Source: an uncultured Acidobacteriota bacterium
GTDB lineage: Bacteria > Acidobacteriota > Thermoanaerobaculia > Gp7-AA8
Direction of reading: 5' to 3'
DNA length: 64,000 bases
Assembly (NCBI GenBank): GCA_963741955.1
Contig: CAVUKB010000006.1
Span: 256,001 to 320,000, forward strand
Below are positions 12,948-27,895 of this stretch, piece by piece. Numbering within the stretch: position 1 is the stretch's first letter; each line of letters opens with the position of its first letter. Both the position numbers and the translations under genes were made by a program. Under the pieces are notes generated by a model. It had not been told where the DNA came from. It saw only the letters and a program-made list of their open reading frames with translations, and did no database searches.

Positions 12948-13997
12948 TCACCGCACCTGCTCGAACGTGCAGCTCTTCGGCTTCTTGTCGGTTCTCCAGC
13001 GAAGGAATTTCGTGCCGTGCCGGAAGCGATCGCCGCTGAAGTAGTCGTACTGCACTTCGCAGACGAGCTTCGGCGCGACCGGTATGTATTGATTGTCGTC
13101 CCGCGACCAGCGGCTGCGTCCGGGCGCTTTTCCGTCGAATCCTCCCTTCCCCGAGATCGGTTCGAGAAGTGACTTCAGCTTCTTCTTCTCCGCGGCGTTG
13201 AAGCTCGAGCAGTGGCCGACGTGATGCAGCCGCCCCTCGGCGTCGTAAAGCCCGAGGATGATCGCGCCGACCTGCTTCCCGTCCGACGACAGCCGATACC
13301 CTCCGACCACGCAATCCGCTTCGCGGAGGTGCTTGACCTTCACCATCCCGCGGCGCTCTCCGGAGAGATACGGGAGATCGAGCTCCTTCGCCATCACTCC
13401 TTCGAGTCGGTAGCGGTCGCAGTTGTCGAACCAGTCGACTGCGACCTTCCGGTCCGTGGTGGCCGGTGACAGCTTGACCGGCGAGTCGTCGGCGATCCCG
13501 ACGAAAAAGCTTTCGAGCCGTTCTCTCCGATCACGAAGAGGAAGCTCATGCATCGAGTCGGCACTCTTCTTTTTCTTCCCGGGGGCGACGAGAAGGTCGA
13601 ACACGAAATACTGAGCGGGGGTCTCCTCGGCGAGCTTCCGGATACGCGACTCCGCCGGATGAAGCCGAAGCTGGAGCGAGTCGAACGAGAGGCGGTCGCC
13701 GACCGGAAGGACGATCTCACCGTCGAGGACGAACGGATCGGGCGCAAGCGCCCGAAACGCGTCGACGAGCTCGGGGAAATAGCGTCCGAGAGGCTGTCCG
13801 GACTTCGACTGGATCACGACCTCGTCGCCGCTGCGGAAGACGATTGCCCGGAACCCATCCCACTTCGGCTCGTATTGCCACTGATCGCCGGCGGGAACCT
13901 CCGTCGCCCGGGTCGCCTCCATGGGGGGAAAGGGAATCGGGAGAGGGAGCGAGAGTTTCGGGAACTCGCTCCCTCTTCTTTTCTGCACCGCTCTCAT
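12948..13997 (-). CDS. ligC: ATP-dependent DNA ligase, LigC type
   Basis: YEPKWDGFR (motif I), LDGEIV, FDLL, EGVMAK, FRHG..F.RWR.DK; exact start uncertain. Confidence 0.85.
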   Translation of the reverse strand: MRAVQKRRGSEFPKLSLPLPIPFPPMEATRATEVPAGDQWQYEPKWDGFRAIVFRSGDEVVIQSKSGQPLGRYFPELVDAFRALAPDPFVLDGEIVLPVGDRLSFDSLQLRLHPAESRIRKLAEETPAQYFVFDLLVAPGKKKKSADSMHELPLRDRRERLESFFVGIADDSPVKLSPATTDRKVAVDWFDNCDRYRLEGVMAKELDLPYLSGERRGMVKVKHLREADCVVGGYRLSSDGKQVGAIILGLYDAEGRLHHVGHCSSFNAAEKKKLKSLLEPISGKGGFDGKAPGRSRWSRDDNQYIPVAPKLVCEVQYDYFSGDRFRHGTKFLRWRTDKKPKSCTFEQVR

Positions 13998-14229
13998 GCC
14001 CCAGGCACACTGCGAGGGGAATGCCGGAGCGTGGTGAAGTGATGGGACCTCACTCGTGCGACCCGATGTCGCGAGCTTCAGAGAGCGCGACTCGTTCGCT
14101 GACCGCGTCGCGTTCGAAAGATCGTCGCGATGCGTCCTGGGCTTTGAGCATTTCGAAGCGGACTGGACCTCGAGAGTAGAATGACGAGCCCAGAGGAAAC
14201 CGGAGTCTGGTTTCGGAGCAGGAGGGACC

Positions 14230-15186
14230 ATGCACGTCGTCATCCCGGACGATTATCAGGACGCGGTGAGGAGCCTCGCGTGTTTTGCGAAGCTCGCACC
14301 CCACCGGGTCACGATATTCAACGACTCGGTCAGCGCCGCGGCGGACCTCGCCGGCCGTTTCGCCGAAGCCGATGCGCTGATCCTCATCCGTGAGAGGACC
14401 TGCGTCACTGCAGATCTCCTTTCGAGACTGCCCCGGCTGAGACTGATCAGTCAGACGGGTCGAGGGACCTCACACATCGACGTGGAGGAATGCACGCGAC
14501 GCGGCATCACGGTGTGTGCCGGCACGGGTTCTCCGTGGGCTCCGGCCGAGCTCACCTGGGCTCTGGTTCTCGCAGCCTCGCGTGGAGTGGCGCGCGAAGC
14601 GGACGCGCTGCACCAGGGACAATGGCAGACATCGCTCGGACGGACCGTCCGGGGACGGACGCTAGGAATCTGGGGATACGGAAAGATCGGAAGTCTCGTC
14701 GCGAGTTTCGGTCGTGCCTTCGGAATGGACGTTCTCGCCTGGGGACGCGAAGGATCGAGAACGCGGAGTCTGGCCGACGGCTGCCGCTTCGCCGCGTCGC
14801 GCGAGGAGCTTTTCGACTCGTCGGACGTCCTGTCGCTTCACGCGCGGCTCACACCCGAGACGCGCGGCATCGTGACCTCCGACGATCTCTCGCGGATGAA
14901 AGCCGACGCGCTTCTGGTGAACACGGCTCGGGCGGAACTGATCGAGCCGGGAGCGCTGGTCCGTGCTCTCCGCGCGGGACGTCCGGGATTCGCCGCGCTC
15001 GACGTGTACGACGAAGAGCCTCTGCCCGACCGCAATCCTCTCCTGAAAATGAAGAACGTCCTCTGCACGCCGCATCTCGGCTACGTCGAGCGTGACAGCT
15101 ACGAGCTCTACTTCGGGCAGGCGTTCGACCAGGTACTCGCATTCGCGGCAGGAGAACCGATCAACGTGGTGAATCCTGCCAGATGA
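14230..15186 (+). CDS. D-2-hydroxyacid dehydrogenase family protein
   Basis: GYGKIG Rossmann motif, LVNTAR, DVYDEEP, TPHLG. Confidence 0.9.
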   Translation: MHVVIPDDYQDAVRSLACFAKLAPHRVTIFNDSVSAAADLAGRFAEADALILIRERTCVTADLLSRLPRLRLISQTGRGTSHIDVEECTRRGITVCAGTGSPWAPAELTWALVLAASRGVAREADALHQGQWQTSLGRTVRGRTLGIWGYGKIGSLVASFGRAFGMDVLAWGREGSRTRSLADGCRFAASREELFDSSDVLSLHARLTPETRGIVTSDDLSRMKADALLVNTARAELIEPGALVRALRAGRPGFAALDVYDEEPLPDRNPLLKMKNVLCTPHLGYVERDSYELYFGQAFDQVLAFAAGEPINVVNPAR

Positions 15187-15187
15187 A

Positions 15188-15333
15188 CCGGGAGTCTGCG
15201 TGGTAGCCCGGATCATTCACGGGATTTCGTCGCGAGGAGTGCAAGGCGGGCCTGGATGCACGCGAGACTCGGGATGGATCTGAACCGCTGATCCACCTTC
15301 GCTGGAGGACTGCTTCTACCACGCAGGCCCTGA
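15188..15333. repeat. Degenerate composite palindromic element (family B arms with a family C/A-like insert)
   Basis: GGAGTCTGCGTGGTAG...CTACCACGCAG arms match 41266-41430; CCCGGATCATTCACGGGATTTC follows the TAG. Confidence 0.6.
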
Positions 15334-15427
15334 GGGTCAGATCTTCAGTTACGAGAAGCGGCGCGCCGGGCCGATTCGGGTCGACTCGATTCTGCCCGCC
15401 GGACCTCGATTCGAAACAGCCCGGAGA

Positions 15428-15922
15428 TCACGGCGTGCCGGAGTCGTCCGCCTTCGGCTTCAATGTCCGGATATACTGCACGAGCTCACCGATCTCACGC
15501 TGGCTCAACGTCGGACTCCATGGAGGCATCTCGGCGGAGAGTCCCGCCGCGCCTCCTCCCGTCGAGATCACCGCGACGAGATCATCGTCGGTATGGGAGC
15601 TCTGAAAGGAAGGATCCCCAAGGTCCTGAGGTTTCGGATCGAGGTTGTAAGAATTGAATCCATCTCCATGACCTTCGGTTCCATGGCAGACCTCGCAGTA
15701 ATGCCCGAAGAGCACGTGCCCTTCACGGGTGCGGTACGGAAGGTCCGGCTGCGGCAGCGGGGACCGGGCCGCCATGCCGGCGCTCGGCTCGACCGCGCTC
15801 GTGGTCTCTCTGGAACATCCCATGACTGCAAGAAGACCGAGCGCGATCGTGATGACGACGGTGATGACGATCCCGCGATCTCCACGCGGGAAGGACGAAG
15901 CGAGTCCCATGCAGTGTTTCAC
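15428..15922 (-). CDS. Monoheme class I cytochrome c, probable lipoprotein
   Basis: CEVCH, distal MPPW, lipobox-like AVMGC; GTG start overlaps the upstream stop. Confidence 0.85.
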   Translation of the reverse strand: MKHCMGLASSFPRGDRGIVITVVITIALGLLAVMGCSRETTSAVEPSAGMAARSPLPQPDLPYRTREGHVLFGHYCEVCHGTEGHGDGFNSYNLDPKPQDLGDPSFQSSHTDDDLVAVISTGGGAAGLSAEMPPWSPTLSQREIGELVQYIRTLKPKADDSGTP

Positions 15923-17943
15923 GGCTGACCTCCCGTGGCGGTTCCTGCCGCAGGGGGCTTCGCGGAGAGCAGGTAGGCGGCGAGGTCCGTGGCATCGGCA
16001 TCGCTCAGCTTGAAGTTCGGACATCTCACGTCAGCCCTCCACCGCTGCGGTCCGCCGAGCCACCACGCAATCCATCCGGATTTCAGTTTCTGTGGTGCGT
16101 CATCGAGTGGCGGCCCCACGTATCCACCCCGCCCTTCCACCTGGTGACAGCTCTGGCAGGCGTAACGTTCGAAGAAGAGCTTCCGTCCGCGAGCTGCTTC
16201 GTCCGCCGGTACGCCACCCGGAAAGATCTCGCCCGGGATGTCATTGCGGACGAAGACGTTCTCGATGAAACTGGCGATGAACTGCGCTTCCTCGGGCGGC
16301 ATCTTCAACGGAATCATCCGATCGGTGAGAATCGGGCGGATCGTGGTCGGCAGCAGAAGATATTGCTCGAGCCATTTCCGCTGGACCTTGCTCCCTTCCC
16401 AGGTCAATGGTGCCGTCGAAATGTCCCCTCCGACTCCCTCGATCTGGTGACACGACATACAGCGATAGCGGTCGAGGAGTTGCCCGAACCTTCCTGGAGG
16501 TACGTAATGGCTCTTCGTCGCTTCGACGCGGAGCGGTTCGGGGATCGAGCTGCCGGAGTAGGAGAGGAGCGCCGTCACCAGCGTCTCAACCTGATGCCCA
16601 TCGAACCCGAACTCGGGCATCTTCAGCCCGTGGCGGAACGAGCGCGGCTTCGACACCTTCGCCGCGAGCCACTCCGGAAGACCACGGGGGATATCGGTCC
16701 GATCGCCGAAATCGAGCCGGTCGGTCGGCTTGGCGCCGATGCCGGTCAGGTCGGGTCCGATCTTTCCGTTCTCGTATTTCCCCCCGATCGCGTGGCATCC
16801 GCCACATCCGTACTTGCGGAACAGCGACTCTCCATCATTCACGAGACTCAGAGGCGGCCGGAACGAGGCCGCGCTTCGAGTCGGAACAGTCGTGTCCGTG
16901 AGGTCGTCCATCATGTATTGAGTCAGGTCGATCAGATCCTGGCGGCTGAAATCGTACTGAGGCATGGCGGTCGCAGGCTGAAACGCGTGCGGGTCTGCGA
17001 TGAACGCTGCGAGCCAGGAGCGGTCGACCTTCGAGCCGATGGCTCCGAGTTCCGGCGCACTTCCGTTTCCGCGGCCTCCAATCGTGTGGCAGGAGATGCA
17101 GCGCGACTCACGGAAGAGTGCCTTGCCGTGATCGAAGTCGCCTGGGGGGAGGTTCCGGTACTCGTCGGGAATGGCTTCCTTCGCCGGACGGGTCCAGAGA
17201 TACGCCACCAGAGATTCGATCTCGTTCTTCTGCAGGTGAAAGTTCGGCATCAGCGTCTGCGGCCGCAGCGCTCTCGGATTTGCGAGCCACGCACTCAGCC
17301 ACTCCGGAAAGGTCTGATCCGCCAGACCGTCGAGGTCGGGAGCGGCGCTCTTCCACACGTCATGTCCCTTCAGGTCGTGACATGCGAAACAGCCAGCCCG
17401 CCGCATCAGCGCGCGTCCCTCGGAGAGCATGGATGCCTGGGGAACGCGGTCACCTTCGTGGCAGGTCCCACAGGAAGCTTCCGTATAGCGGATCGGAAGG
17501 ATCGGAGACGACCAGTCCGAAACGCTGCCGTGCGCTTCCGCGACGGTCGTCGCCCGCCCCTGTCCGCGGTGGCATGCGACGCAACCAAAACGCGACTGAT
17601 CGTCCGGCATGTGTGGAACCGCGGGATGGCTCCGGAACGGCTGAGGAGCGCCGGCCATAGAAGCTTCGTCAACCCCCAGATGACAGCTGGTGCAGCGGTC
17701 GACCCGATTCCCGAAATCCGGAATCCAGATCTGCCGGACGTGAACGGTCTCGCTCCTCGCCTTCTTCAACTCCTTCTGCGAGCCTGCCGATGCGAGGAGC
17801 CGCTGCTGATAAGCCTTCTGATAATGCCGGTACTCACTGAAAGCGTCTTTGATCGGCGAGATCGCGAGTACGAGCAGAAACGCGACGCTCGAGATCGCGA
17901 ACCAGATCCAGAGTCGATCGGATGAATGGTCGGTTCGAGGCAT
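15919..17943 (-). CDS. Membrane-anchored octaheme cytochrome c of a Rieske/cyt b complex
   Basis: Eight CxxCH (CTSCH, CVACH, CGTCH, CFACH, CISCH, CGGCH, CMSCH, CQSCH); N-terminal TM; ATG 17943 coupled to the upstream stop. Confidence 0.9.
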   Translation of the reverse strand: MPRTDHSSDRLWIWFAISSVAFLLVLAISPIKDAFSEYRHYQKAYQQRLLASAGSQKELKKARSETVHVRQIWIPDFGNRVDRCTSCHLGVDEASMAGAPQPFRSHPAVPHMPDDQSRFGCVACHRGQGRATTVAEAHGSVSDWSSPILPIRYTEASCGTCHEGDRVPQASMLSEGRALMRRAGCFACHDLKGHDVWKSAAPDLDGLADQTFPEWLSAWLANPRALRPQTLMPNFHLQKNEIESLVAYLWTRPAKEAIPDEYRNLPPGDFDHGKALFRESRCISCHTIGGRGNGSAPELGAIGSKVDRSWLAAFIADPHAFQPATAMPQYDFSRQDLIDLTQYMMDDLTDTTVPTRSAASFRPPLSLVNDGESLFRKYGCGGCHAIGGKYENGKIGPDLTGIGAKPTDRLDFGDRTDIPRGLPEWLAAKVSKPRSFRHGLKMPEFGFDGHQVETLVTALLSYSGSSIPEPLRVEATKSHYVPPGRFGQLLDRYRCMSCHQIEGVGGDISTAPLTWEGSKVQRKWLEQYLLLPTTIRPILTDRMIPLKMPPEEAQFIASFIENVFVRNDIPGEIFPGGVPADEAARGRKLFFERYACQSCHQVEGRGGYVGPPLDDAPQKLKSGWIAWWLGGPQRWRADVRCPNFKLSDADATDLAAYLLSAKPPAAGTATGGQP

Positions 17944-18638
17944 CAATAGACTCCTTGCCACGGCCACACCCAGCTCCAGCCCGGGCCACGGAAAAGGACA
18001 CCAATCAGTGTCAGGACCACCGCGACCACTACGAACCAGGTCATGATCCAGTCCGCCAGAGGAATGTGGCCGAGAACGCTCCGTACTCTCGAGGGGAGCG
18101 TGGGAATCGCGGGGAGCAGCATGAGGAGATATATCGCGACGGTGGGAACCACCACCGGCCATACCTGTTTGAGCGCGAGAACCGCGACGAGGGCGGCCGT
18201 CACGATCGAAATCAGCACCAGAGGCATTTTCCATGGGCGCTCGTAGAGCCCGATCAGATCCACGTTCACCCGGAAGAACGGGATGATGACGAGAGCGAAC
18301 ACCACGCAGGTCGGAATGAGAATTCCAGCGACGATCGGCGGGAAGTAGTGGAGCAGCTCCTGCAGTCCGAGAAAGTACCACGCCGCCTTGGCGGGGTTGG
18401 GGGTGTGGTACGGATCGGCGATCCCTTCGAGCGGAGCGTTCACCAGAAGAGAGATGATCGCCAGTGCGATGACGATGACCTCGATGAGAATGATCTCGCG
18501 CAGCAGCAGATGCGGGGCCGTCGTCACCACTTCGTCGCGGTCCTCGAGAAGCCTCGCGGGAACTTCGCGCCGCACCAGGGCAACCCTCTTCGGCGTCCTG
18601 GCGGCGTTGCTCGACGATTCGATCTCGAGCTTGCTCAT
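17943..18638 (-). CDS. Cytochrome b C-terminal subunit (subunit IV / PetD-QcrC-like)
   Basis: [18 protein letters not shown] (PEWY-equivalent), multiple TM helices, FRGPGW tail. Confidence 0.85.
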
Positions 18639-19384
18639 TGTGCCTCCTCCGCGATCCGATGCTTTCTTCCGCTGGACCCGGCCACCCCACCATCCTTGCG
18701 AACTCTCCAGAGATGAACCGCCAGTGCTCCGAACAGCGCGATCGGAAGGAGTACACAATGGAGTACGTAGAAACGGAGCAGCGCATTCGGTCCTACGATG
18801 TTTCCACCGAGAAGCACGAAACGGAGTTTCGGCCCGAGCAGCGGCATCGCGTTCGCCATGTTCGTTCCCACCGAGACGCCCCAGAACGCGAGCTGATCCC
18901 AGGGGAGAAGATAGCCGGTGTAGCTCAGCAGGAGAGTGAGGAGAAACAGAATCACCCCGACCATCCAGTTCAGCTCACGAGGTGGACGGAACGCGCGGTG
19001 ATAGAACGTCCGCAGAAGATGGAGAAAGACGACCAGCACCAGCCCGTGGGCCGCCCACCGATGCATGTTGCGGAGAAAAACGCCGTTCCCGACGACGAAC
19101 CGGAGCTCCTTCATGTCGTCATACGCCTGCGGGACGGAGGGATGGTAGTAGAGCATCAGCAGGATCCCGGTGCCGACCAGGACACCGAGAAGGACCAGCG
19201 CCGTCCCTCCGAGATAGTAGGTGCTCGAGAACTCGAGATTACGACGCCGTGTTTTCGCCGAATGGAGATGCAGGAAGACGTTCTCCATCACCAGCTGCAC
19301 GCGGTTCCGGTTCGTCGGCTCGACGCCGTGCCGCACGGCCGCGCGCCACAAACGGCTGCGTATGATCGAATCGAGAATACTCAT
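18635..19384 (-). CDS. Cytochrome b6-type N-terminal subunit (PetB/QcrB-like)
   Basis: Four heme His (MHRW...FLH; LHCV...AVH), [16 protein letters not shown]. Confidence 0.92.
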
Positions 19385-19393
19385 CGTCTCTCC

Positions 19394-19918
19394 TCAAAGC
19401 TTGACGACCGTCCCTTCGGGAACTTCGACGCCGGTATCGACCTCGATGTCTCCTTTGGAATCGAGATCGATCTGAAACCACGGCAGGGGTCGTGGTGCGG
19501 GCCCTCCGATCACGTCCCCGTCGAGCGAATAGCGACTGCCGTGACAGGGGCAGGCGATGACGTTTTCGTCGACCTTGTATCGGGTGATGCAGCCGAGATG
19601 AGTGCAGACGGAGGAAAGGGCGTGAAAACCTTCCTTCTGCCGGATCACGTAGGCCCGGTACACTTCGTTCGTCACCACTGCGCCGACATCGATTGCGTCG
19701 GGTGGACCGAGGGTGAACTCCGTCGGCGGCTCGAAGAGGACGCGGGGTTTGAGGAAGTCGACGGAGAGTGCCGCCGCACCTCCTGCAGCAGCCGCACACG
19801 CAGCAACGCCGGTCACCTGAAAGAATCGCCGTCTCGACAGATGGATCTTCCTGATTCGCGCTTCATCCCGTTCTTCCGGATCATGTTCGCCTGGGCGCTT
19901 GCTGGTCGGGTCAGGCAC
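19394..19918 (-). CDS. Rieske [2Fe-2S] subunit
   Basis: CTHLGC and CPCHGSRY boxes; Tat motif SRRRFF. Confidence 0.93.
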   Translation of the reverse strand: MPDPTSKRPGEHDPEERDEARIRKIHLSRRRFFQVTGVAACAAAAGGAAALSVDFLKPRVLFEPPTEFTLGPPDAIDVGAVVTNEVYRAYVIRQKEGFHALSSVCTHLGCITRYKVDENVIACPCHGSRYSLDGDVIGGPAPRPLPWFQIDLDSKGDIEVDTGVEVPEGTVVKL

Positions 19919-21782
19919 TCGAAGCCTCCTTCAACAGAAACTGCTGCATAGTGATGGTTCCGGTCGGGCATCGCTCGGCGCAGAGTCCGCAACGGATACA
20001 GATCGTTTCGTCCTTGATCAGCACCGTCCCGATCGGCTTCGAATCGAAGAAGATCGATGCGGAGTCGCCAAGCTCTGCGATCACCTCGTCGCGCATTGAC
20101 GGATCGACCGCGATCTCCGCCGCCGGAACGAGCTCGATGCACTGCTCGGGACAAACGTCGGCACAACCTCCGCACAGAACGCATTCGGTCCCGAGCTCGT
20201 GATCTTCCTCGAAGACCGTGTTGATCCAGCAACGAAGACATCGGCTCCCCTCCCGTCTCGCTGAGAGCTCCGGCATGCATCTCTCCACTTCGGCGATGCC
20301 AACGCGGCGATCGATGGGAAGGGTTGGAGGCTTCTGCCGAGGGATACCCTCGTAGTCGAACTCCCTGCGGAATCCACGCAACGGCTCGATCAGAACTTCG
20401 ATCTCCTGGTCCGGAGTCGCGCCCCCTCGCAGCCACTCGTGAATCGATCTCGCCGCGCGCCGTCCGTCCGCGATCGCGGTGATCGCGATGCGCGGTCCGA
20501 ATGCCACGTCGCCGCCGGCGTAGATTCCCGGCGCGGTTGTCGCGAGGGTTTCCGGATCGACCTGAATCGTTCCCCGTCGCGTCACTTCGATCCCGTCCTC
20601 CGGCGAGAGGAACGTCAGATCGCTCGCCTGTCCGATGGCGAGAATGACGGTGTCGGCGGCCAGAGAGAGCTCCGTTTCCTCGATCACCTTCGGATTGAAA
20701 CGTCCATCCGAATCGAATACCGACGCGCACTCCAGAGTCTCGATTCCGGTCACTCTCCCCGCACTACCGAGAACTCGCTTGAGCGACCGGCGGGGGTGAA
20801 ACGTCACGCCTTCTTTCCGGGCCTGCTCGATCTCTTCCCGGTCTGCGGGCATCTCGTCCATCGATTCGAGCGAGACGACGTGGATCTCCTTCGCGCCGAA
20901 GCGAACCGCCGAGCGTGCGACGTCGAGCGCAGTGACGATGTTGATGTCGGGTGAGGGGATCGTGTCCGGCGACGCGGTCCTGACCGCCGAGCGTGCCACG
21001 TCGAGCGCGACATTGCCTCCGCCCAGCACCACCACGCGGCGGCCGATGTCGACCCGGTATCCCATGTTCACATTGAGGAGGAAGTCGACCCCCTTCAGGA
21101 CCCCGTCGAGATCGGTGCCGGGGACTTCCAGCGAGCGGCCCTTGTGTGCACCGATGGCGAGGAAGACCGAACGGAATCCCTCCTCGCGAAGGCCCGCCAG
21201 CGAGTAGTCGCGGCCAAGCCGCTGGTTGATGCGGAGCTCGACCCCGAGGCTGAGGATCGCGTTGATCTCGAGCTTGATCAGCTCACGCGGAAGGCGGTAC
21301 TCGGGGATTCCGAGGCGGAGCATTCCGCCCGCGACCGCCTGGGCCTCGAAGATGGTGACCGGATAGCCCAGGAGCGCGAGATCATGGGCTGCGGCGAGAC
21401 CGGCAGGACCGGCGCCGATGATGGCGATCCGATCAAGCGGGTAGCGCATCTCGCGTTTGCCGTAGATCTCCTTGAGCATGTCGAGATCGATCATGCTTTC
21501 CACACCGAATCGCTCGGTGACGAAGCGTTTGAGCGCGCGGATTGCAACCGGCTCGTCGAGCTCTCCACGCCTGCAGGCCGCCTCGCATGGCGCCGCACAG
21601 ATCCGGCCGCAAATGGAGGCGAGCGGATTCGGCTTGCGGGCGACCGCGTACGCCTCGCGATAGCGTCCTTCCGCGATGAGCGAAACGTAGCGACCCGCTT
21701 CCGTGCCCACCGGGCAGGCCGAGTGACAGGGAAAGTTGCTCTCCAGCCACTCGCGATTGACCCTGGTCCGGTTCATGTCCAT
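19911..21782 (-). CDS. GltD/NfnB-like FAD-dependent NAD(P)H oxidoreductase with C-terminal 2x[4Fe-4S] ferredoxin domain
   Basis: PCHSACP/CGRIC..PCEAAC clusters, GAGPAG, GGGNVA, CVLCGGCADVCP, CIRCGLCAERCP; no signal peptide. Confidence 0.9.
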   Translation of the reverse strand: MDMNRTRVNREWLESNFPCHSACPVGTEAGRYVSLIAEGRYREAYAVARKPNPLASICGRICAAPCEAACRRGELDEPVAIRALKRFVTERFGVESMIDLDMLKEIYGKREMRYPLDRIAIIGAGPAGLAAAHDLALLGYPVTIFEAQAVAGGMLRLGIPEYRLPRELIKLEINAILSLGVELRINQRLGRDYSLAGLREEGFRSVFLAIGAHKGRSLEVPGTDLDGVLKGVDFLLNVNMGYRVDIGRRVVVLGGGNVALDVARSAVRTASPDTIPSPDINIVTALDVARSAVRFGAKEIHVVSLESMDEMPADREEIEQARKEGVTFHPRRSLKRVLGSAGRVTGIETLECASVFDSDGRFNPKVIEETELSLAADTVILAIGQASDLTFLSPEDGIEVTRRGTIQVDPETLATTAPGIYAGGDVAFGPRIAITAIADGRRAARSIHEWLRGGATPDQEIEVLIEPLRGFRREFDYEGIPRQKPPTLPIDRRVGIAEVERCMPELSARREGSRCLRCWINTVFEEDHELGTECVLCGGCADVCPEQCIELVPAAEIAVDPSMRDEVIAELGDSASIFFDSKPIGTVLIKDETICIRCGLCAERCPTGTITMQQFLLKEASSA

Positions 21783-21801
21783 CTCTTCCCCGGCTCGCCG
21801 T

Positions 21802-22383
21802 CTACTTGGAGAGCTCGAAATCGAGCTCTGTCTTACCCGAGACTTTCACCGGTCTGGATGTTTGTTTCAGCTTCGGATGCCAGACTTCGACGGTGTATTG
21901 ACCATCGGGAAGGTCCTTGATGGTGTAGCTGCCATCGCTGGCGGTGACCGCGTAATAGGACGTGGGGAGCGCCAGGATATAGGCTTCCATCTCGGGATGC
22001 ACCGCGCACAGCAGCGTCGCCATGCATTGCCGTTTGAACGTGTAACTGCGGGTCTGACCCTTCGGCCAGCTCCCGAGATTGAAACGATCGGCACACTTGT
22101 CGGGAGAGAAGACGTTGTGGAGAAACGGATCGTCGTTGAGGAAGTCGACCGTCGTGCCGACGACGACCGGGAGAACGTGCGGAACGAAGGACATGTCCTT
22201 CTGATTCATGACCGGATGATTCGCAGGCGGCGTGAAGGTCTTTCCTGGAATGGCGTCGATGTAGACCACTGCGTCGGCTGAGTTCCGCAGCCCCTTCGCC
22301 ACCACTTTTCCGTGCAGATCGCCTGCAACCAGTGGCGCAGCCACCATGGCTGCTACAGCAATCAAGAGCGTGAATCTTTTCAT
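21802..22383 (-). CDS. Periplasmic cupredoxin (type-1 Cu) within a carboxypeptidase-regulatory-like beta-sandwich
   Basis: Signal peptide; HNVFS and CAVHPEM give a His/Cys/His/Met set (amicyanin-like C-x2-H-x2-M loop). Confidence 0.8.
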   Translation of the reverse strand: MKRFTLLIAVAAMVAAPLVAGDLHGKVVAKGLRNSADAVVYIDAIPGKTFTPPANHPVMNQKDMSFVPHVLPVVVGTTVDFLNDDPFLHNVFSPDKCADRFNLGSWPKGQTRSYTFKRQCMATLLCAVHPEMEAYILALPTSYYAVTASDGSYTIKDLPDGQYTVEVWHPKLKQTSRPVKVSGKTELDFELSK

Positions 22384-22411
22384 GATCTGACTCCCTTCAT
22401 GTGAACGGCTT

Positions 22412-23830
22412 TCAGAATGCGTAACGGAGGACGGTCGACAGCTGATAGTTCTTCGATTCGTTCAGGTCGCGGCGGTATTCGAGCATCCCTTTCACGTTCG
22501 CATAGGCGAAGTAGCTGAAGCTCGCGTTGAGGAAGCGGAGCGAATCGACGGAGCGGTCGCCCGGCTTGAGGCTTTCGTACCGGAGCGAGGTCTGAAACAC
22601 CGGAGTGATCACGTAATCGGCTTGCACGAACCATGTGTCGTATGTCGGCTCGTTCCGTGAGAGAAGGCTGCCGTCGTCCGCGAACGCGTCGATCGTGTCA
22701 CGACCATTCATCGCGACTCCGAACACGTTCAGGTCGTCGAACCACCATGACGCATAGAGACCAGCACGTGAAAACGTCCGGTCCTGAAGATTGGCCGGCA
22801 TCTCGTCGGCCATCATTCCCATGCCGCTATCGACGGGAAAGTCGATTCCCTTGCCGTTTCCCTGGTATCCGAGGATGCCGACCCGAAGCGAGCGCTCACG
22901 CCAGTTCTGGGGCGGGAGATTGACGCCGGTCGTGTCGCCGTCCAGTCCCATCCCTCCGAACTTGTAGTCGGCACGAGCGTAGAAATCCTTCGAGGCATTT
23001 CCGTCGGCGGTTCCGTCGCCCGGCCCGAGGCCATTCGTGATTCCCGCGGTGTAGAAGAATCGATGGTGTGCGACTCCGTACATCTCGATGCCTTCCACCA
23101 TCATCGGCAGGCTGATTCCGCCCATGTCTTCGGACAGACCAGTGCCGCCCGCGACCCCGATCGGGTTGTAGGAGAAGAGCGTGTCGATCGCGTTGTCCGT
23201 GGAGATCCACATCTCCTGAAAACCGTCTGCGAGATCCGGCGCGAACTTCCCGATCTTGAAGTTCACCATGTGCTCCGGACCGAACGGTGAATTGAAGTGG
23301 AGCTCGGCGTGCTCGATCTCGGTTCCCGTCTCGCCTGCATCCTGCGCCCAGGTCATCTCACCGAAGAAGCTCATGTGGTCGCCCATGGTTCCGGCGGAGA
23401 ATAGATTGACTTCCTGGGGGAACTGAAAGTCGTTCTTGACCACGGTCCGTCCGGTATCGTCGACGGAAGAGAGATAGATGCTGGCCATCTTGATGTTCAT
23501 CGCCAGCGGAACATTGCCGGGGATGTCGCTCGGATAGATCATCTTCGGCCACATCCGCTTGTAGGCGTCGGATCCGAGGCTCGTTTGCGGAACCTTCACC
23601 TGAGCTTCCGTCTCGTTCGGAAAGCGGTATCCGTTCAGCCGGAATGCTTCGCCGAACGCGTTGAGCTTCGGGAATCCGACGTGGCAGGTCTGGCACGATG
23701 TCTTGTACTTCCTCGCGAAGACCGGGACGGCGAAGGCCGGCAGGGAGCCGGCCAGCATGGCCGCCAGAGCGAGAAGTACCGCCCCGAAACCAATCGGATG
23801 TCGCGGTCTTTTCCCGGGTACTTCGTTCAT
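22412..23830 (-). CDS. Cyc2-like fused monoheme cytochrome c-outer membrane porin
   Basis: Signal peptide, AVPVFARKY..SCQTCH..FPKLNAFGEAFRLNGY, long beta-rich C-terminus ending in Phe (LRYAF); GGAAGGAG RBS. Confidence 0.8.
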   Translation of the reverse strand: MNEVPGKRPRHPIGFGAVLLALAAMLAGSLPAFAVPVFARKYKTSCQTCHVGFPKLNAFGEAFRLNGYRFPNETEAQVKVPQTSLGSDAYKRMWPKMIYPSDIPGNVPLAMNIKMASIYLSSVDDTGRTVVKNDFQFPQEVNLFSAGTMGDHMSFFGEMTWAQDAGETGTEIEHAELHFNSPFGPEHMVNFKIGKFAPDLADGFQEMWISTDNAIDTLFSYNPIGVAGGTGLSEDMGGISLPMMVEGIEMYGVAHHRFFYTAGITNGLGPGDGTADGNASKDFYARADYKFGGMGLDGDTTGVNLPPQNWRERSLRVGILGYQGNGKGIDFPVDSGMGMMADEMPANLQDRTFSRAGLYASWWFDDLNVFGVAMNGRDTIDAFADDGSLLSRNEPTYDTWFVQADYVITPVFQTSLRYESLKPGDRSVDSLRFLNASFSYFAYANVKGMLEYRRDLNESKNYQLSTVLRYAF

Positions 23831-23922
23831 CGCGGATCTCCTTCCTCGAATGTTTCTCTTTCCATGCATCGAGGTTAGGAGTCGCGGTGACCGTTTGGAA
23901 TCGGCCGCATACCTCATTCGAG

Positions 23923-23938
23923 TGATGCAAATGCATTA
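23923..23938. promoter_or_regulatory. 7-2-7 inverted repeat TGATGCA-AA-TGCATTA upstream of the Cyc2-like operon
   Basis: AT-rich imperfect palindrome ~95 bp upstream of the start; LuxR/NarL-type regulator adjacent. Confidence 0.45.
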
Positions 23939-23954
23939 TTTCGATGTGGATCTG

Positions 23955-23997
23955 GAAGTCTGCGCGGTAGAAACGTCTGTAGCGAGAAAGCGGAGCA
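23955..23997. repeat. Family B palindromic element, left-arm remnant
   Basis: AGTCTGCGCGGTAGAAACGTCTGTAGCGAGAAAGCG matches 41270-41306. Confidence 0.7.
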
Positions 23998-24001
23998 AGG
24001 G

Positions 24002-24646
24002 TCAGATGAGGCGGTGGCGGAGTGCGATCGACACGGCTTCGAGTTTGCTGTGGACGTCGAGCTTGTGAAGGACGTTCTGCACGTGGTTGCGTACGGTCGC
24101 GACGCTGATGAAGAGCGTGTCCGCGATGGCCTGGCTGCTTGCGCCGTCCGCCACGAGACGGAGTACCTCGAGCTCCCGGGTGCTCAGGTTGTAGGTCTTC
24201 TCCTCGGGCGGATGCTCTGACGTCGAGGCGCGCGTGATCTCGAGAAGCGTCTCGATGGTATGCCGGTCGATCCGATCTTCCGCCTCGAGGCGCTGCAGCA
24301 GATGGATCATGGTGAACTGCGAGCTTCGGGGCCCCGGAATCACGATGATCGAGATGCCAACCCGAACCGGTTCGCCCGGTGATCCGCGGACATCCATCTC
24401 GAACCGGCGGATTGCCTCGTGACGCCGCGCCATCTGAGTCAGAATGCAGTGTTCGTCGCAGAAGCGGTTGCCGAAGAGGTCCTTTCCGCAGAGGATCTCG
24501 TGGCATGGCCGGCCGAGGACATCTGCCGCCTCGTAGCCGAGGAGGCGTTCGGCGGCACGGTTCCAGATGACGATGCGTCCCTCCTCGTCGGTGCCGAACG
24601 CGGCGTCCGCGGTGCTGCTGACGACTTCGAGCGGATCGATCGTCAC
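24002..24646 (-). CDS. PAS + LuxR/NarL-type HTH transcriptional regulator
   Basis: WNRAAERLLGY (PAS); LSTRELEVLRL...LFIS..TVRNHV..KLDV (LuxR HTH). Confidence 0.9.
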   Translation of the reverse strand: MTIDPLEVVSSTADAAFGTDEEGRIVIWNRAAERLLGYEAADVLGRPCHEILCGKDLFGNRFCDEHCILTQMARRHEAIRRFEMDVRGSPGEPVRVGISIIVIPGPRSSQFTMIHLLQRLEAEDRIDRHTIETLLEITRASTSEHPPEEKTYNLSTRELEVLRLVADGASSQAIADTLFISVATVRNHVQNVLHKLDVHSKLEAVSIALRHRLI

Positions 24647-24904
24647 TTCCCTGCCATGGTCGCGAGCTCACCCCGCGACTCCACCGACGAGCCGCCGCGA
24701 TGAGCTCGGATTTTCCCGGTACTTCTACCGTAGACCTCCCGAGCGAGCCCGTCCACTTACAAAACCGTCAGGCGCGGAAGGAGTGCCTGAGTCCGCCACA
24801 CAGACCGAATCAGCCCGGACCGTGAATGGTCCGCGTTAGTGGGTGTGAAGACGGCGTTCACCCGAATAGGCGAAGTCGACAGTACCTCGAGGAGCGAAAG
24901 TGCG

Positions 24905-24968
24905 GTCTGACGCCGCAGACACGCCCGGATCGCGCTCCGCAGTAGAAGTCCCGTGAATGATCCCCGGT
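24905..24968. repeat. Family C element remnant (reverse orientation)
   Basis: Reverse complement GGATCATTCACGGGACTTCTACTGCGGAGCGCGATC matches ~2353-2387; GTCTGACGCCGCAGAC shared with ~41545. Confidence 0.55.
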
Positions 24969-25093
24969 CCGGGTCGATGACGGTCCCGTCAGTTCGACAT
25001 GGGTCAGGTCTGAAGTTTCCCTCTTTCGATTGAAGCAGAGGGTCACGAAGCGTATAACTGAATGCTCATCGCGCCAAGATTGGAGGCCTACCC

Positions 25094-27895
25094 GTGCACA
25101 AACGCTCCTGCATCATTCTGTTACTGTTCGTATTTTCCGTCGGCTCCCTTTATGCCCAGACGCTCCAGGAAGGGAAGTGGATGCAGCTTCCCGGGATGAA
25201 GCTGAAGGGGATGGTGACGCGCGACGCGAACGGAATCGCGCACGTCACAGCCCTCGACACCTGGGATCTCTTCTATCTCCAGGGATACGTCGAGGCGACC
25301 GATCGCTTCTTCCAGATGGATTTCAACCGGAAGGTGGCGAGTGGCCGTCTGGCCGAGATCCTCGGCAGTGCTGCGCTGTCCAACGACGTACAGCTGCGGA
25401 CGCTCGGCCTGCGCCGCGCCGCCGAAGCTTCGCTCGATGTCGCGTCGCCGGAAGCGAAAGACGTCCTGGAAGCCTTCTCCGCCGGAGTGAATCAGTGGCT
25501 CTCGACCCACGCTCTTCCTTCGGAATACGGCCTGCTGCACATCACGAAGTCGGAGCCGTGGTCGCCGGCGGACACGCTGGCCATCGCCAAGCTCCTGGCG
25601 TTCAATCTCGCATTCGATCTCGGAGACATCGACCGGACGGTGGCGCTTCTGACGTACGAAGGCGCGGGTAAGGTCGTCGGGTTCAACGGCGATGCTCTCT
25701 TCTTCGAGGACCTGTTCCGCACTGCGCCGTTCAGCGACGCGGCAACGATGCCCGACGCCGGAGTGCAGCCGCCGTGGGTTCAGGCTCCCGCAACGAACGC
25801 AACACACCGGCTGCGTGCTTCGAAGCGAACCCACGGAGTCACGACCGCTTTCCGCGATTCCGACTCGACCCTGAATCTCGCGCGCGAATACGCGGCGAAG
25901 GTGCGGAACCTTCCTTCGTTCCGCGCGGCATTCGAGAGAGAGAAGCACCCCGGATCCAACGAGTGGGGCATCGCCGGATCGCTGAGTTCGAGCGGCAACG
26001 CACTCCTCGCGAACGATCCTCACCTCTCGCTCGGAACTCCCTCGACGTTCTATCCGATCTACCTTCAGGGAGGCGGGTACGACGTCGCGGGTGAGACCTT
26101 CGCCGGAGCTCCTGCGATCATCCTCGGTCACAATCAGCAGATCGAGTGGGGCGAAACGACGAACTTCTCCGACGTGACCGACGTCTATCAGGAACAGCTC
26201 GTTCCGGATCCTTCGTCGCCGTCGGGTTACAGCTCCATCTACCAGGGAAAGAAGGAACCGGTCGTCCCCATCCCCGAGACGTTCAAGATGAATGCGATGT
26301 CGGGGAGCTCGGACGACATCGTGACGGTCCCGTCGAGTGGCGACGTTCCTCCGGTGACACTCGTCGTTCCGCGGCATGGCCCGATCGTGCAGCTCGATAC
26401 CTCGACCGGCGAGGCGCTCTCGGTCCAGTTCACCGGCCTCTATCCGACGCACGAGATCGAAGCGTTCATCGGAATCGACAAGGCGACGAATCTCGACGAG
26501 TTCCAGAAGGGACTCCAGTATTTCGACTTCGGCTCGCAGAATTTCGCATACGCGGACCGCGCGGGGCACCTCGGGTACTTCACCGCGGGTGAAGTGCCCA
26601 TCCGTGAAGATCTTCAGGCGATGAGCGTCAACGGCGCGCCTCCGATGTTCATCCGTGACGGCATGGGCGGCAACGAATGGATGCCGGTACAGAACCAGCA
26701 GCCGGGACAGGCGATCCCCTACGAGATTCTTCCCGCCAGCGAGATGCCGCACCTCATCGACCCGCCGAACGGATTCTTCGTCAACGCCAACAACGACCCC
26801 ACCGGGGCGACGCTCGACAACAACTCCCTCAATCAGATTCGAGCGGGCGGAGGACTCTACTACTTCGGCCCCGGCTTCGACGGGTTCCGTGCCGGACGCA
26901 TCACACAGCTGATCCAGCAGAAGATCGATGCCGGAGAGAAGTTCGACCTCGACACGCTGAAGAGAATGCAGGCGGACACGGTGCTTCTCGATGCGGAGTA
27001 CTTCGTTCCGAAGATCCTCCAGGCGTGGCAAAAAGCGTCGGCTTCCACCGATCCGGCACTGGCGCAGTTCGCGGCGAACCCGGTGATCTCCGCCGCGATC
27101 CAGCGGCTGCAGGGATGGAATTACGCGACTCCGACCGGCATCCCGCAGGGATATGACGGCACGCCTCTTCCCCCGGACTACAAGACGCGGGACGCGAGCG
27201 TCGCCGCGACGCTCTACACCGCATGGAGAAGCCGTCTGATCGCGAACACCATCGACGCCGTCCTCGACGCCGGAGGCCTGCCGCGTCCCGACAGCGGACT
27301 CACACTCACCGCGCTCGAGCACATCTTCGACGTCTTCGATCAACAGGGAGGTGTCGGTGCGTCGGGCATCAACTTCTTCAACGTGGACGGCGTTTCCAGC
27401 GCTGCGGACCGCCGCGACATCATCGTTCTCGCCAGCCTCGGCGAAGCGATGCAGACGCTCTCCAGCGCGGAATTCGCTCCCGCGTTCGGCGAATCGACCA
27501 ACCTCGACGACTACGAATGGGGAAAGCTCCACCGCCTCTCCCTCGCTCACGTCATGGGATGGCCATTCTCCATTCCAATGGAGTTCGGCTCGTTCCCACC
27601 GCCACTCCCGGGACTCCCGGGCATTCCGGTCGACGGCGGTTTCGAGACCGTCGACGCGTCCTCTTTCAACGTGCGAAATCTTTCGCTCAATGGCTACATG
27701 TACGGAAGCGGTCCGGCGCGTCGCTTCGTCGGCGAAGCCGCCGCGTCAGGAATCAATGCGCAATCGAGTCTCCCGGGAGGAGTGAGCGGAATTCATGGCA
27801 ATCCTCTCTCGACGAATCTCCTCGTGCAGTGGCTGAAGAACGAGACCTACGACCAGTCGCTTCCGCCGGCGTTCTCGCTGCCGTGGATGCCGTAA
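25094..27895 (+). CDS. Penicillin acylase family (Ntn hydrolase, S45), secreted
   Basis: RDANGIAHV, DRFFQMD, GSNEW nucleophile, LANDPHL, NANN; signal peptide. Confidence 0.9.
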   Translation: MHKRSCIILLLFVFSVGSLYAQTLQEGKWMQLPGMKLKGMVTRDANGIAHVTALDTWDLFYLQGYVEATDRFFQMDFNRKVASGRLAEILGSAALSNDVQLRTLGLRRAAEASLDVASPEAKDVLEAFSAGVNQWLSTHALPSEYGLLHITKSEPWSPADTLAIAKLLAFNLAFDLGDIDRTVALLTYEGAGKVVGFNGDALFFEDLFRTAPFSDAATMPDAGVQPPWVQAPATNATHRLRASKRTHGVTTAFRDSDSTLNLAREYAAKVRNLPSFRAAFEREKHPGSNEWGIAGSLSSSGNALLANDPHLSLGTPSTFYPIYLQGGGYDVAGETFAGAPAIILGHNQQIEWGETTNFSDVTDVYQEQLVPDPSSPSGYSSIYQGKKEPVVPIPETFKMNAMSGSSDDIVTVPSSGDVPPVTLVVPRHGPIVQLDTSTGEALSVQFTGLYPTHEIEAFIGIDKATNLDEFQKGLQYFDFGSQNFAYADRAGHLGYFTAGEVPIREDLQAMSVNGAPPMFIRDGMGGNEWMPVQNQQPGQAIPYEILPASEMPHLIDPPNGFFVNANNDPTGATLDNNSLNQIRAGGGLYYFGPGFDGFRAGRITQLIQQKIDAGEKFDLDTLKRMQADTVLLDAEYFVPKILQAWQKASASTDPALAQFAANPVISAAIQRLQGWNYATPTGIPQGYDGTPLPPDYKTRDASVAATLYTAWRSRLIANTIDAVLDAGGLPRPDSGLTLTALEHIFDVFDQQGGVGASGINFFNVDGVSSAADRRDIIVLASLGEAMQTLSSAEFAPAFGESTNLDDYEWGKLHRLSLAHVMGWPFSIPMEFGSFPPPLPGLPGIPVDGGFETVDASSFNVRNLSLNGYMYGSGPARRFVGEAAASGINAQSSLPGGVSGIHGNPLSTNLLVQWLKNETYDQSLPPAFSLPWMP

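Follow-up and report, generated by a model that had tools for sequence, protein, structure and literature searches.

An Acidobacteriota operon combining a predicted haem-porin and cupredoxin with a flavoprotein-bearing Rieske/cytochrome b complex

Positions 15428 to 24646 of the window, by which we mean the whole 64,000-nucleotide stretch of an uncultured Acidobacteriota genome that was analyzed, raise the question of whether two separately known electron transfer modules have been joined in one operon, and in which direction electrons would then pass through it. One module is an outer-membrane porin-cytochrome with a blue copper protein; the other is a Rieske/cytochrome b complex carrying its own flavoprotein. 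An earlier note on this DNA had proposed such a junction from eight co-oriented genes with overlaps or gaps of less than 30 bp. This layout was recovered. Using the most likely starts, the operon consists of eight minus-strand genes at 15428-23830, and the intergenic distances from gene 1 to gene 8 are 28, 19, -8, 9, -4, -1, and 8 bp. Position 15428 is the stop end of the last gene, which encodes the monohaem cytochrome c, and not a gene start. With its order repeated in dozens of genomes, the arrangement far exceeds what chance would produce, and the tight spacing together with this recurrence bears out the joining of the two modules. The operon is real and conserved, and it combines genes of known kinds in a new way.

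The gene identities that had been named from the letters alone agree with family libraries, structure models, and motifs. Pfam and NCBIfam support all of the assignments except two: the porin-cytochrome has no match in either library, and the cupredoxin falls just below its cut-off. The identities of these two proteins were settled by structure models and motifs. The ORF (open reading frame) of gene 1 extends to 23917; the start adopted here, 23830, is that of the database copy, P0001.

Conservation of the arrangement was assessed by a scan for the porin-cytochrome, with one genome per species, which gave 43 loci, and by tblastn with nine proteins of the window. The cupredoxin gene lies directly downstream of the porin-cytochrome gene in 40 of these loci, and at the other three the available sequence ends less than 1.5 kb downstream. 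The remaining six genes all follow in order at 25 of the 43, and four more loci that are cut by contig ends (L006, L010, L012, and L023) agree as far as their sequence runs. The earlier note's pairing of porin-cytochrome and cupredoxin with the Rieske/cytochrome b genes is therefore co-conserved at 29 of 40 informative loci, to which divergent operons with porin-cytochromes of about 30% identity can be added. The operon-bearing loci include those of the cultured Geothrix terrae SG184, G. oryzisoli SG189, and G. campi SG10 (L013, L021, and L037).

A census of 301 Acidobacteriota genomes gave the same picture on a wider scale. The porin-cytochrome was found in 26 genomes at an E value of 1e-20 or less (in 8 of them at 51% identity or more), the flavoprotein in 73 at 1e-80 or less, and cytochrome b6 in 205 at 1e-30 or less, a tally that includes the unpublished G024 and G049. 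By hand collation, a cytochrome b6 gene follows 67 of 89 flavoprotein genes at a distance of 0.4 to 1.4 kb on the same strand; for 14 it stands 5 to 7.5 kb upstream, and 8 were left unresolved. At 16 of 27 porin-cytochrome places, a flavoprotein gene follows within 2.5 kb. Eighteen further loci were examined. Cupredoxin-type operons were present at 11 of them, each with a Cyc2-like gene of a subtype other than the window's, whose ORFs measure 418 to 570 amino acids (aa) and end in an aromatic residue in 10 of the 11 cases. This gene stands at the upstream end of the operon in nine and downstream of the monohaem cytochrome gene in two (L056 and L057). At the other seven loci (L058 and L060 to L065), the flavoprotein-Rieske/b core occurs without cupredoxin or porin-cytochrome. 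The joined operon is present in at least 20 of the 301 genomes and the core in 73.

These counts bear on one alternative, that the modules are co-regulated neighbours which exchange no electrons. The porin-cytochrome and cupredoxin would then serve metal or redox sensing, or the handling of iron and copper in the envelope, and the Rieske/b complex would work with other periplasmic partners. Separation of the modules does occur, both in the seven core-only loci and at 11 of the 40 informative loci, where the pair is found without Rieske/b genes, in some cases beside metal-related genes (ferritin, an ABC-3 metal transporter permease, or a P-type ATPase in L004, L022, and L044). A cytochrome c gene is the neighbour of the pair in L007 and L044. 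Against mere co-location stand the translational-coupling distances, the persistence of the pairing through swaps of porin-cytochrome subtype and moves between operon ends, and a second operon in the host genome which starts with a Cyc2-like gene followed by Rieske and cytochrome b genes. We consider this alternative very unlikely. One of the pair-only loci, L004:12109-14327 (Thermoanaerobaculia), continues from the pair to a 504-aa GltD-like flavoprotein without the C-terminal ferredoxin domain and to a ferritin; it holds no Rieske/b genes.

Variation among the operons is concentrated at the outer-membrane gene. The Cyc2-like slot is filled by three sequence subtypes in related operons, and the outer-membrane gene seems, from sequence comparison, to have been exchanged inside an otherwise fixed operon. 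For four of the proteins, the window's closest relatives are in L048 (G117) and L049 (G081), with identities of 51 to 57% for the regulator, 72 to 74% for the flavoprotein, 73 to 74% for cytochrome b6, and 60 to 62% for the octahaem cytochrome. Their porin-cytochrome is 31% identical to that of the window, and loci with 47 to 62% identical porin-cytochromes have less similar Rieske/b genes. The downstream Cyc2-like genes of L056 (G219) and L057 (G032) belong to a subtype with the N-terminus ARQTGLxCxxCH. In L031, the block from cupredoxin to monohaem cytochrome lies upstream of the matched Cyc2-like gene. Two operons were found in metagenome-assembled genomes (MAGs) labelled Acidithiobacillales and Betaproteobacteria (L012 and L028, project PRJNA957066). 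The same project also gave two Acidobacteriota-labelled MAGs carrying the porin-cytochrome gene (L005 and L006). Since the proteins of L012 and L028 are 55 to 57% identical to those of the window, like those of Acidobacteriota loci, mis-binning is as likely as a true presence in Pseudomonadota.

Gene 1 is predicted, by architecture, fold, and N-terminal motif, to encode a Cyc2/Cyt572-type fused cytochrome-porin. The protein has a signal peptide, followed by one CxxCH motif (CQTCH) nine residues past the predicted cleavage site (AFA/VP). A single CxxCH behind a signal peptide is likewise found in all 11 operon-linked Cyc2-like homologues and in the paralogue P0121. An AlphaFold2 (AF2) model built from 48 sequences, with a predicted local distance difference test score (pLDDT) of 79 and a predicted template modelling score (pTM) of 0.79, contains about 16 long strands from residue 109. 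Its best solved match in Foldseek is OprP (2o4v; E value, 9e-14), and OprO (4rjx and 4rjw) also scored high. The beta-barrel that had been anticipated for the first protein was thus obtained in the model. According to the available part of the review PMC13741234, 4RJX is the best template for both Cyc2 and Cyt572, and the Edman N-terminus of Leptospirillum Cyt572 is YPGFARKYNF, followed by the haem motif CSFCH. The mature start of the gene 1 protein fits the resulting xPxFARKY pattern, a comparison that spans the ten-residue Edman sequence and the haem motif given in that part of the review. The likeness to Cyc2 noted earlier holds for the general type, and the best-documented relative to which the protein can be tied is Leptospirillum Cyt572, through the N-terminal motif. 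As far as the available part of PMC10654088 describes it, Cyc572 derives from a cluster with Acidobacteria and Nitrospira homologues.

A profile search with the porin-cytochrome returned 3,820 representative clusters at an E value of 1e-3 or less and 322 at 1e-30 or less. The named homologues of gene 1 belong to Thermoanaerobaculia and other Acidobacteriota, and among 10 representatives looked up of the 150 listed, the one with an organism name, a distant relative, came from a Planctomycetota MAG. The G+C content is 0.584 at 22001-24000, where the porin-cytochrome gene lies, and 0.61 to 0.67 in the other 2-kb bins of the window; the gene is present in one of five genomes sampled from the host's family. 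Low G+C content and patchy presence in the family are compatible with lateral acquisition of this gene.

Four Rieske/b loci were found in the host genome, two of which begin with a haem-porin gene. The second of these haem-porin operons lies outside the window, on the minus strand of contig C7 at 13531-19156 (locus L047:4531-10156). It encodes a PRC-barrel protein, the Cyc2-like P0121, a Rieske protein, and a cytochrome b fused to four cytochrome c domains, with neither a cupredoxin nor a flavoprotein. P0121 has 487 aa, with one CxxCH right behind the signal peptide, and is 23% identical to the gene 1 protein over 209 residues. Its gene stands directly before those of the Rieske protein and the cytochrome b-cytochrome c fusion, which is further evidence that haem-porins and Rieske/b complexes are linked. 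A third Cyc2-like paralogue, at about 1.24 Mb on contig C7, has no redox neighbours.

The protein of gene 2 missed the Pfam gathering threshold for Copper-bind narrowly, scoring 20.5 bits against a cut-off of 21.2. Its copper ligands H89, C126, H129, and M132 are kept without exception in two alignments, of 42 and of 49 sequences, and the last three are spaced C-x2-H-x2-M, the spacing of amicyanin. The AF2 model has a pLDDT of 93, and with it Foldseek matched amicyanin at template modelling (TM) scores of 0.73 to 0.76, plastocyanin at 0.73, and also pseudoazurin. The cupredoxin domain is set inside a CarboxypepD_reg-like beta-sandwich. As fold and ligands outweigh the score, the blue-copper assignment was upheld despite the narrow Pfam miss, and gene 2 is predicted to encode a periplasmic, amicyanin-like type-1 (blue) copper protein.

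The other module begins with the flavoprotein. It carries a C-terminal 2x[4Fe-4S] ferredoxin domain, has no signal peptide and no membrane segment, and is cytoplasmic. It matches the NCBIfam model PRK12771 with 460 bits, and its best solved relative is the large subunit of NfnABC/Bfu (9bov/9bp5; 318 bits). Across 25 sequences, its cysteine sets and GxGxxG motifs do not vary, and its gene accounts for the longest overlap in the operon, 8 bp with the Rieske gene. The Rieske protein has a twin-arginine leader and the box II sequence CPCHGSRY. The best of its 77 solved matches is 9rk4, Kuste4569 (97.5 bits; E value, 6.7e-27), followed by 9rk3, Kustd1480 (64.5 bits), and then by the b6f Rieske protein (63.4 bits). 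The available part of PMC12954380 identifies 9rk4 and 9rk3 as the Rieske subunits of two NAD(P) oxidoreductase-bearing complexes of Kuenenia. Box II is of the Ser-x-Tyr kind in the window protein and in 6 of 30 sequences and of the Ser-x-Phe kind in 24 of 30. Anammox Rieske proteins of these two kinds have potentials of +303 and +335 mV, as given in the available part of PMC12954380.

Cytochrome b6 has four helices with the four canonical haem histidines, plus an N-terminal HxH (H39 and H41). Residues H39, H41, H108, H113, H122, H209, and H224 are invariant in 28 of 28 sequences, and the N-terminal HxH is not present in the three other cytochromes b of the host genome. In the models of the anammox complexes, according to the available part of PMC12954380, each cytochrome b monomer binds one more b haem through an N-terminal histidine, beside the flavoprotein. 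By analogy, H39 and H41 may hold such a haem, and their conservation would fit a flavoprotein bound on the n side of the cytochrome b dimer. A haem-ci cysteine was not found in cytochrome b6: the residue preceding LGG, which by the b6f motif presumably marks the haem-ci column, is Tyr, Trp, or Gly throughout the 28 sequences. The protein did not reach the cut-off of the NCBIfam model ExtP (248.2 against 290 bits), nor did subunit IV reach that of ExtQ (48.4 against 150 bits). Subunit IV is longer than its b6f counterpart. Its Qo-site motif reads AAWYF in the window and APWYF in 29 of 30 sequences. The corresponding motif in b6f and bc1 complexes is PEWY, and the acidic residue is missing here. 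With the Rieske protein nearest to Kuste4569 and the flavoprotein nearest to the NfnABC structure, the relationship to anammox NAD(P)-linked complexes that had been suggested for these genes was supported, and genes 3 to 7 are, as judged from their sequences, a homologue of those NAD(P) oxidoreductase-bearing Rieske/cytochrome b complexes. The flavoprotein-bearing Rieske/b core also occurs beyond anammox bacteria, as the 73 Acidobacteriota genomes with it demonstrate. Cytochromes b of Solibacter and Kuenenia had already been grouped together by Baymann et al. (2012).

The complexes of Kuenenia stuttgartiensis, Kuste4569-4574 and Kustd1480-1485, were proposed by Kartal et al. (2013), and the proposal is summarized in the available part of PMC12954380. 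Like them, the window operon codes for a four-helix cytochrome b of the b6 type and for subunit IV as a protein of its own. A multihaem cytochrome c replaces cytochrome f or c1 in both, and both clusters include the gene of a GltD/NfnB-like FAD/NAD(P) iron-sulfur protein; the NfnABC structure nearest to the window's flavoprotein was also a match of Kuste4570. In contrast, the order is flavoprotein-Rieske in the window and Rieske-flavoprotein in Kuenenia, and the window operon has neither an HAO-type octahaem protein nor a haem-ci cysteine, which Baymann et al. reported for two Kuenenia sequences. It adds a cupredoxin, a monohaem cytochrome c, and an outer-membrane cytochrome-porin, and its host is an acidobacterium without an anammoxosome.

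The operon's c-type haems on membrane-tethered cytochromes number nine, over two proteins. The larger of these is a membrane-anchored cytochrome c with eight CxxCH motifs, three of the multihaem type and five in class-I cytochrome c domains. All eight are kept in every one of the 23 orthologues whose alignment exceeds 600 aa, and the protein scores above the ExtS cut-off (112.1 against 100 bits) through its repeated class-I domains. The octahaem cytochrome c of the earlier note is thus right as to haem number. An HAO-type octahaem protein such as Kuste4574 was considered and rejected on domain content. The monohaem cytochrome c has an N-terminal anchor or lipoprotein-like leader, with one CxxCH in 27 of 28 orthologous ORFs. 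The stop of the PAS-LuxR regulator gene is 171 bp upstream of gene 1. A homologue lies directly upstream of the operon in 17 of the 43 related loci, at 36 to 41% identity, and also in L048, L049, L054, and L055, at 40 to 57%. A scan of positions 15000-25200 returned no promoter-like sites and five terminator-like sites, against 6.8 expected from shuffles, and was uninformative for both. Coordinates of all nine genes are collected below.

Coordinates of the operon genes and the upstream regulator in the window, in order of transcription
Feature	Position	Strand	Length and basis of assignment
PAS-LuxR one-component transcriptional regulator	24002-24646	-	214 aa; Pfam PAS_9/PAS and GerE
Predicted Cyc2/Cyt572-type fused cytochrome-porin (gene 1)	22412-23830	-	472 aa; motif and AF2/Foldseek
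Predicted amicyanin-like type-1 cupredoxin (gene 2)	21802-22383	-	193 aa; Pfam Copper-bind (below cut-off) and CarboxypepD_reg, ligands, AF2
GltD/NfnB-like FAD/NAD(P) iron-sulfur flavoprotein	19911-21782	-	623 aa; Pfam Fer4_20, Pyr_redox_2, Fer4_7
Rieske [2Fe-2S] subunit	19394-19918	-	174 aa; Pfam Rieske
Cytochrome b6-type subunit	18635-19384	-	249 aa; Pfam Cytochrome_B, 144.6 bits
Subunit IV-like membrane subunit	17943-18638	-	231 aa; Pfam Cytochrom_B_C, 25.6 bits
Eight-CxxCH membrane-anchored cytochrome c	15919-17943	-	674 aa; Pfam Cytochrom_C, Cytochrome_CBB3, Cytochrome_C7
Monohaem class-I cytochrome c	15428-15910	-	160 aa; Pfam Cytochrome_CBB3

Sequence, models, and conservation place the parts from the outer membrane to the cytoplasm, and we read them as a single chain of electron carriers across the cell envelope. 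Direction and substrate cannot be read from the sequence, as the earlier note rightly judged. By analogy with the anammox proposal, we tentatively read the operon as a bifurcating quinol oxidase that would send one electron outward and the other to NAD(P)+, a reading we hold to be quite possible but short of probable. Menaquinol would be oxidized at the outer (Qo) site, where its two electrons would separate. The first would pass from the Rieske cluster over the c haems and the copper protein to the porin-cytochrome and on to a high-potential oxidant outside the cell, for which chelated Fe(III), manganese oxides, oxidized humics, and shuttles are candidates; alternatively, its sink might be periplasmic, for example, a terminal oxidase. 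The second would travel through the b haems, possibly including the extra haem on the N-terminal histidines, and then through the iron-sulfur chain to FAD and NAD(P)+. The downhill passage of the first electron would pay for the uphill passage of the second. The copper protein and the exchangeable outer-membrane haem-porin would take the place of the HAO-type octahaem protein that was proposed as the high-potential sink in anammox bacteria.

We favour bifurcation because the role of the flavoprotein is clear only if the low-potential electron of the quinol goes to NAD(P)+. The high-potential branch is supported by the box II kinds of the Rieske proteins, which match the anammox counterparts at +303 and +335 mV. 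The tight operon, the kept gene order, the position of the Rieske protein nearest to Kuste4569, the flavoprotein gene beside that of cytochrome b6, the HxH motif, and the occurrence of the operon in cultured, Fe(III)-reducing Geothrix are all consistent with it.

The same parts can be read in the opposite direction. The porin-cytochrome would then oxidize Fe(II) or another reductant, and electrons would flow inward over copper and c haems to a Rieske/b complex driven in reverse by the proton-motive force, reducing menaquinone, with the flavoprotein as the further link to NAD(P)+. In Acidithiobacillus, the uphill branch consists of Cyc2, rusticyanin, cytochrome c4, a reverse-running bc1 complex, and NDH-1, and the window would hold its counterpart in a single operon. 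The comparison with the Cyc2 family supports inward flow: in the available part of PMC13741234, the only characterized members (Cyc2, Cyt572, and Cyc2PV-1) are Fe(II) oxidases, and the window protein has the N-terminal motif of Cyt572. With A. ferrooxidans Cyc2, Mariprofundus Cyc2PV-1, and Leptospirillum Cyt572 it shares a signal peptide, a single CxxCH at the mature start, and a 16-strand porin-like barrel with OprO/OprP as the best template, the last point as far as the available description of the family goes. Unlike in the rus operon, the window gene lies inside a Rieske/b operon and not beside a terminal oxidase.

The rus and petI operons of Acidithiobacillus ferrooxidans offer a further comparison. 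In both systems, a Rieske/b complex is accompanied by an outer-membrane porin-cytochrome with one haem, a blue-copper protein, and c-type cytochromes, and the pet operon, in the available part of its description, also includes an NAD-related accessory gene, sdrA. However, the parts are divided between two operons there and united in one here, the copper protein is amicyanin-like instead of rusticyanin, and the Rieske/b complex is of the b6 type and comes with a large iron-sulfur flavoprotein. A reversed Rieske/b complex takes electrons from the b haems, so the flavoprotein would have no obvious role unless NAD(P)H were consumed. The operon has no terminal oxidase, and its carriers include the genus Geothrix, which is known to reduce Fe(III).

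The host genome was also considered in this respect. It comprises 5.4 Mb in 16 contigs, with the window at 256001-320000 of contig C6, and is 99.1% complete. The sole sequencing run that contains the 9.2-kb stretch is a DNA run labelled soil metagenome, which is maybe the source sample. Three haem-copper oxidases are encoded and could take the downhill share of inward flow. RuBisCO was not found in the genome; other carbon-fixation routes were not searched. At this completeness, the result disfavours lithoautotrophic iron oxidation, and the host is on this account probably a neutrophilic heterotroph. A lithoautotrophic iron oxidizer was accordingly given lower weight as a candidate, within the same limit. 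All told, we consider inward flow rather unlikely.

A third reading keeps the outward direction and makes NAD(P)H the donor. The flavoprotein would reduce quinone at the inner site by way of the b haems, and a normal Q cycle would deliver the electrons over Rieske centre, c haems, copper protein, and porin-cytochrome to an extracellular acceptor. The operon would then encode a complete NAD(P)H:extracellular-acceptor respiratory chain of its own, suited to acceptors of high potential. This reading draws on the parts and topology of the bifurcating one without change. Mehta-Kolte and Bond are said to have found in 2012 that acceptors of unusually high potential suit the respiration of Geothrix fermentans best and that the organism secretes a shuttle of about +0.3 V. 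A further point in its favour is that a porin and a Rieske/b complex of Geobacter share one Fe(III)-responsive cluster, according to the available part of its description. This cluster, extHIJKLMNOPQS of Geobacter sulfurreducens, is there reported to unite an outer-membrane porin (ExtI, phosphate-porin-like) and multihaem cytochromes with a Rieske protein (ExtO), a cytochrome b (ExtP), a membrane subunit (ExtQ), and a cytochrome c lipoprotein (ExtS). It differs from the window operon, in that part of the description, by a porin without haem and by having no cupredoxin and no flavoprotein. An NAD(P)H-donating chain would waste the NAD(P)H-to-quinone energy span that complex I would conserve (available part of PMC12954380). 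In addition, the high-potential box II kinds of the Rieske proteins fit a very low-potential bL haem, which bifurcation requires. We regard NAD(P)H as the donor as distinctly unlikely.

The Geobacter cluster also qualifies the novelty of the locus. The earlier note knew of no characterization of the combination, and in a literature search that left most subscription journals outside, no publication was found on a Cyc2-type gene and a cupredoxin joined to a flavoprotein-bearing Rieske/b complex. A porin beside a Rieske/b complex is, however, precedented by the ext genes.

Several points weigh against the bifurcating quinol oxidase. Ferric oxides at neutral pH are mostly too low in potential for a Rieske centre at about +200 to +300 mV. 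The absence of the haem-ci cysteine from cytochrome b6 means that the electron path on the n side may differ, and the three haem-copper oxidases of the genome make an aerobic, Fe(II)-oxidizing use possible. Characterized Cyc2 and Cyt572 oxidize Fe(II) and thus move electrons inward, according to the available part of PMC13741234. Even in anammox bacteria, the bifurcating, NAD(P)+-reducing mechanism is unproven, as stated in the available part of PMC12954380. A more specific version of bifurcation, which we put forward as doubtful, holds that an extracellular oxidant drives electrons from menaquinol to NAD(P)+ (or ferredoxin) in one envelope-spanning machine, whose haem-porin cassette sets the partner outside. 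If this were true, reverse electron transport would be paid for by an extracellular acceptor and not by the proton-motive force, and a still-hypothetical anammox mechanism would be placed in culturable bacteria (Geothrix).

The distribution of these genes matters beyond the window. For anammox bacteria, NAD(P)H production by bifurcating Rieske/b complexes has so far been proposed but never demonstrated, in part because the hosts do not grow in pure culture. With the core in about a quarter of the sampled Acidobacteriota species (73 of 301), the anammox-type mechanism becomes testable, and because the full operon is present in named Geothrix isolates, genetics and biochemistry are within reach. 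In abundant bacteria of soils and sediments, the operon also connects a haem-porin of the Cyc2/Cyt572 type, the usual marker of an "iron oxidizer," with NAD(P) and the quinone pool. In the table of a field study of Trout Bog, 0 oxidative extracellular-electron-transfer genes are listed for Geothrix. The operon bears on what is concluded from metagenomes about the redox cycling of iron and humics. Finally, as the haem-porin is swapped between subtypes and the rest of the operon stays fixed, outer-membrane components in extracellular electron transfer would be exchangeable, which suggests a modular design of such operons.

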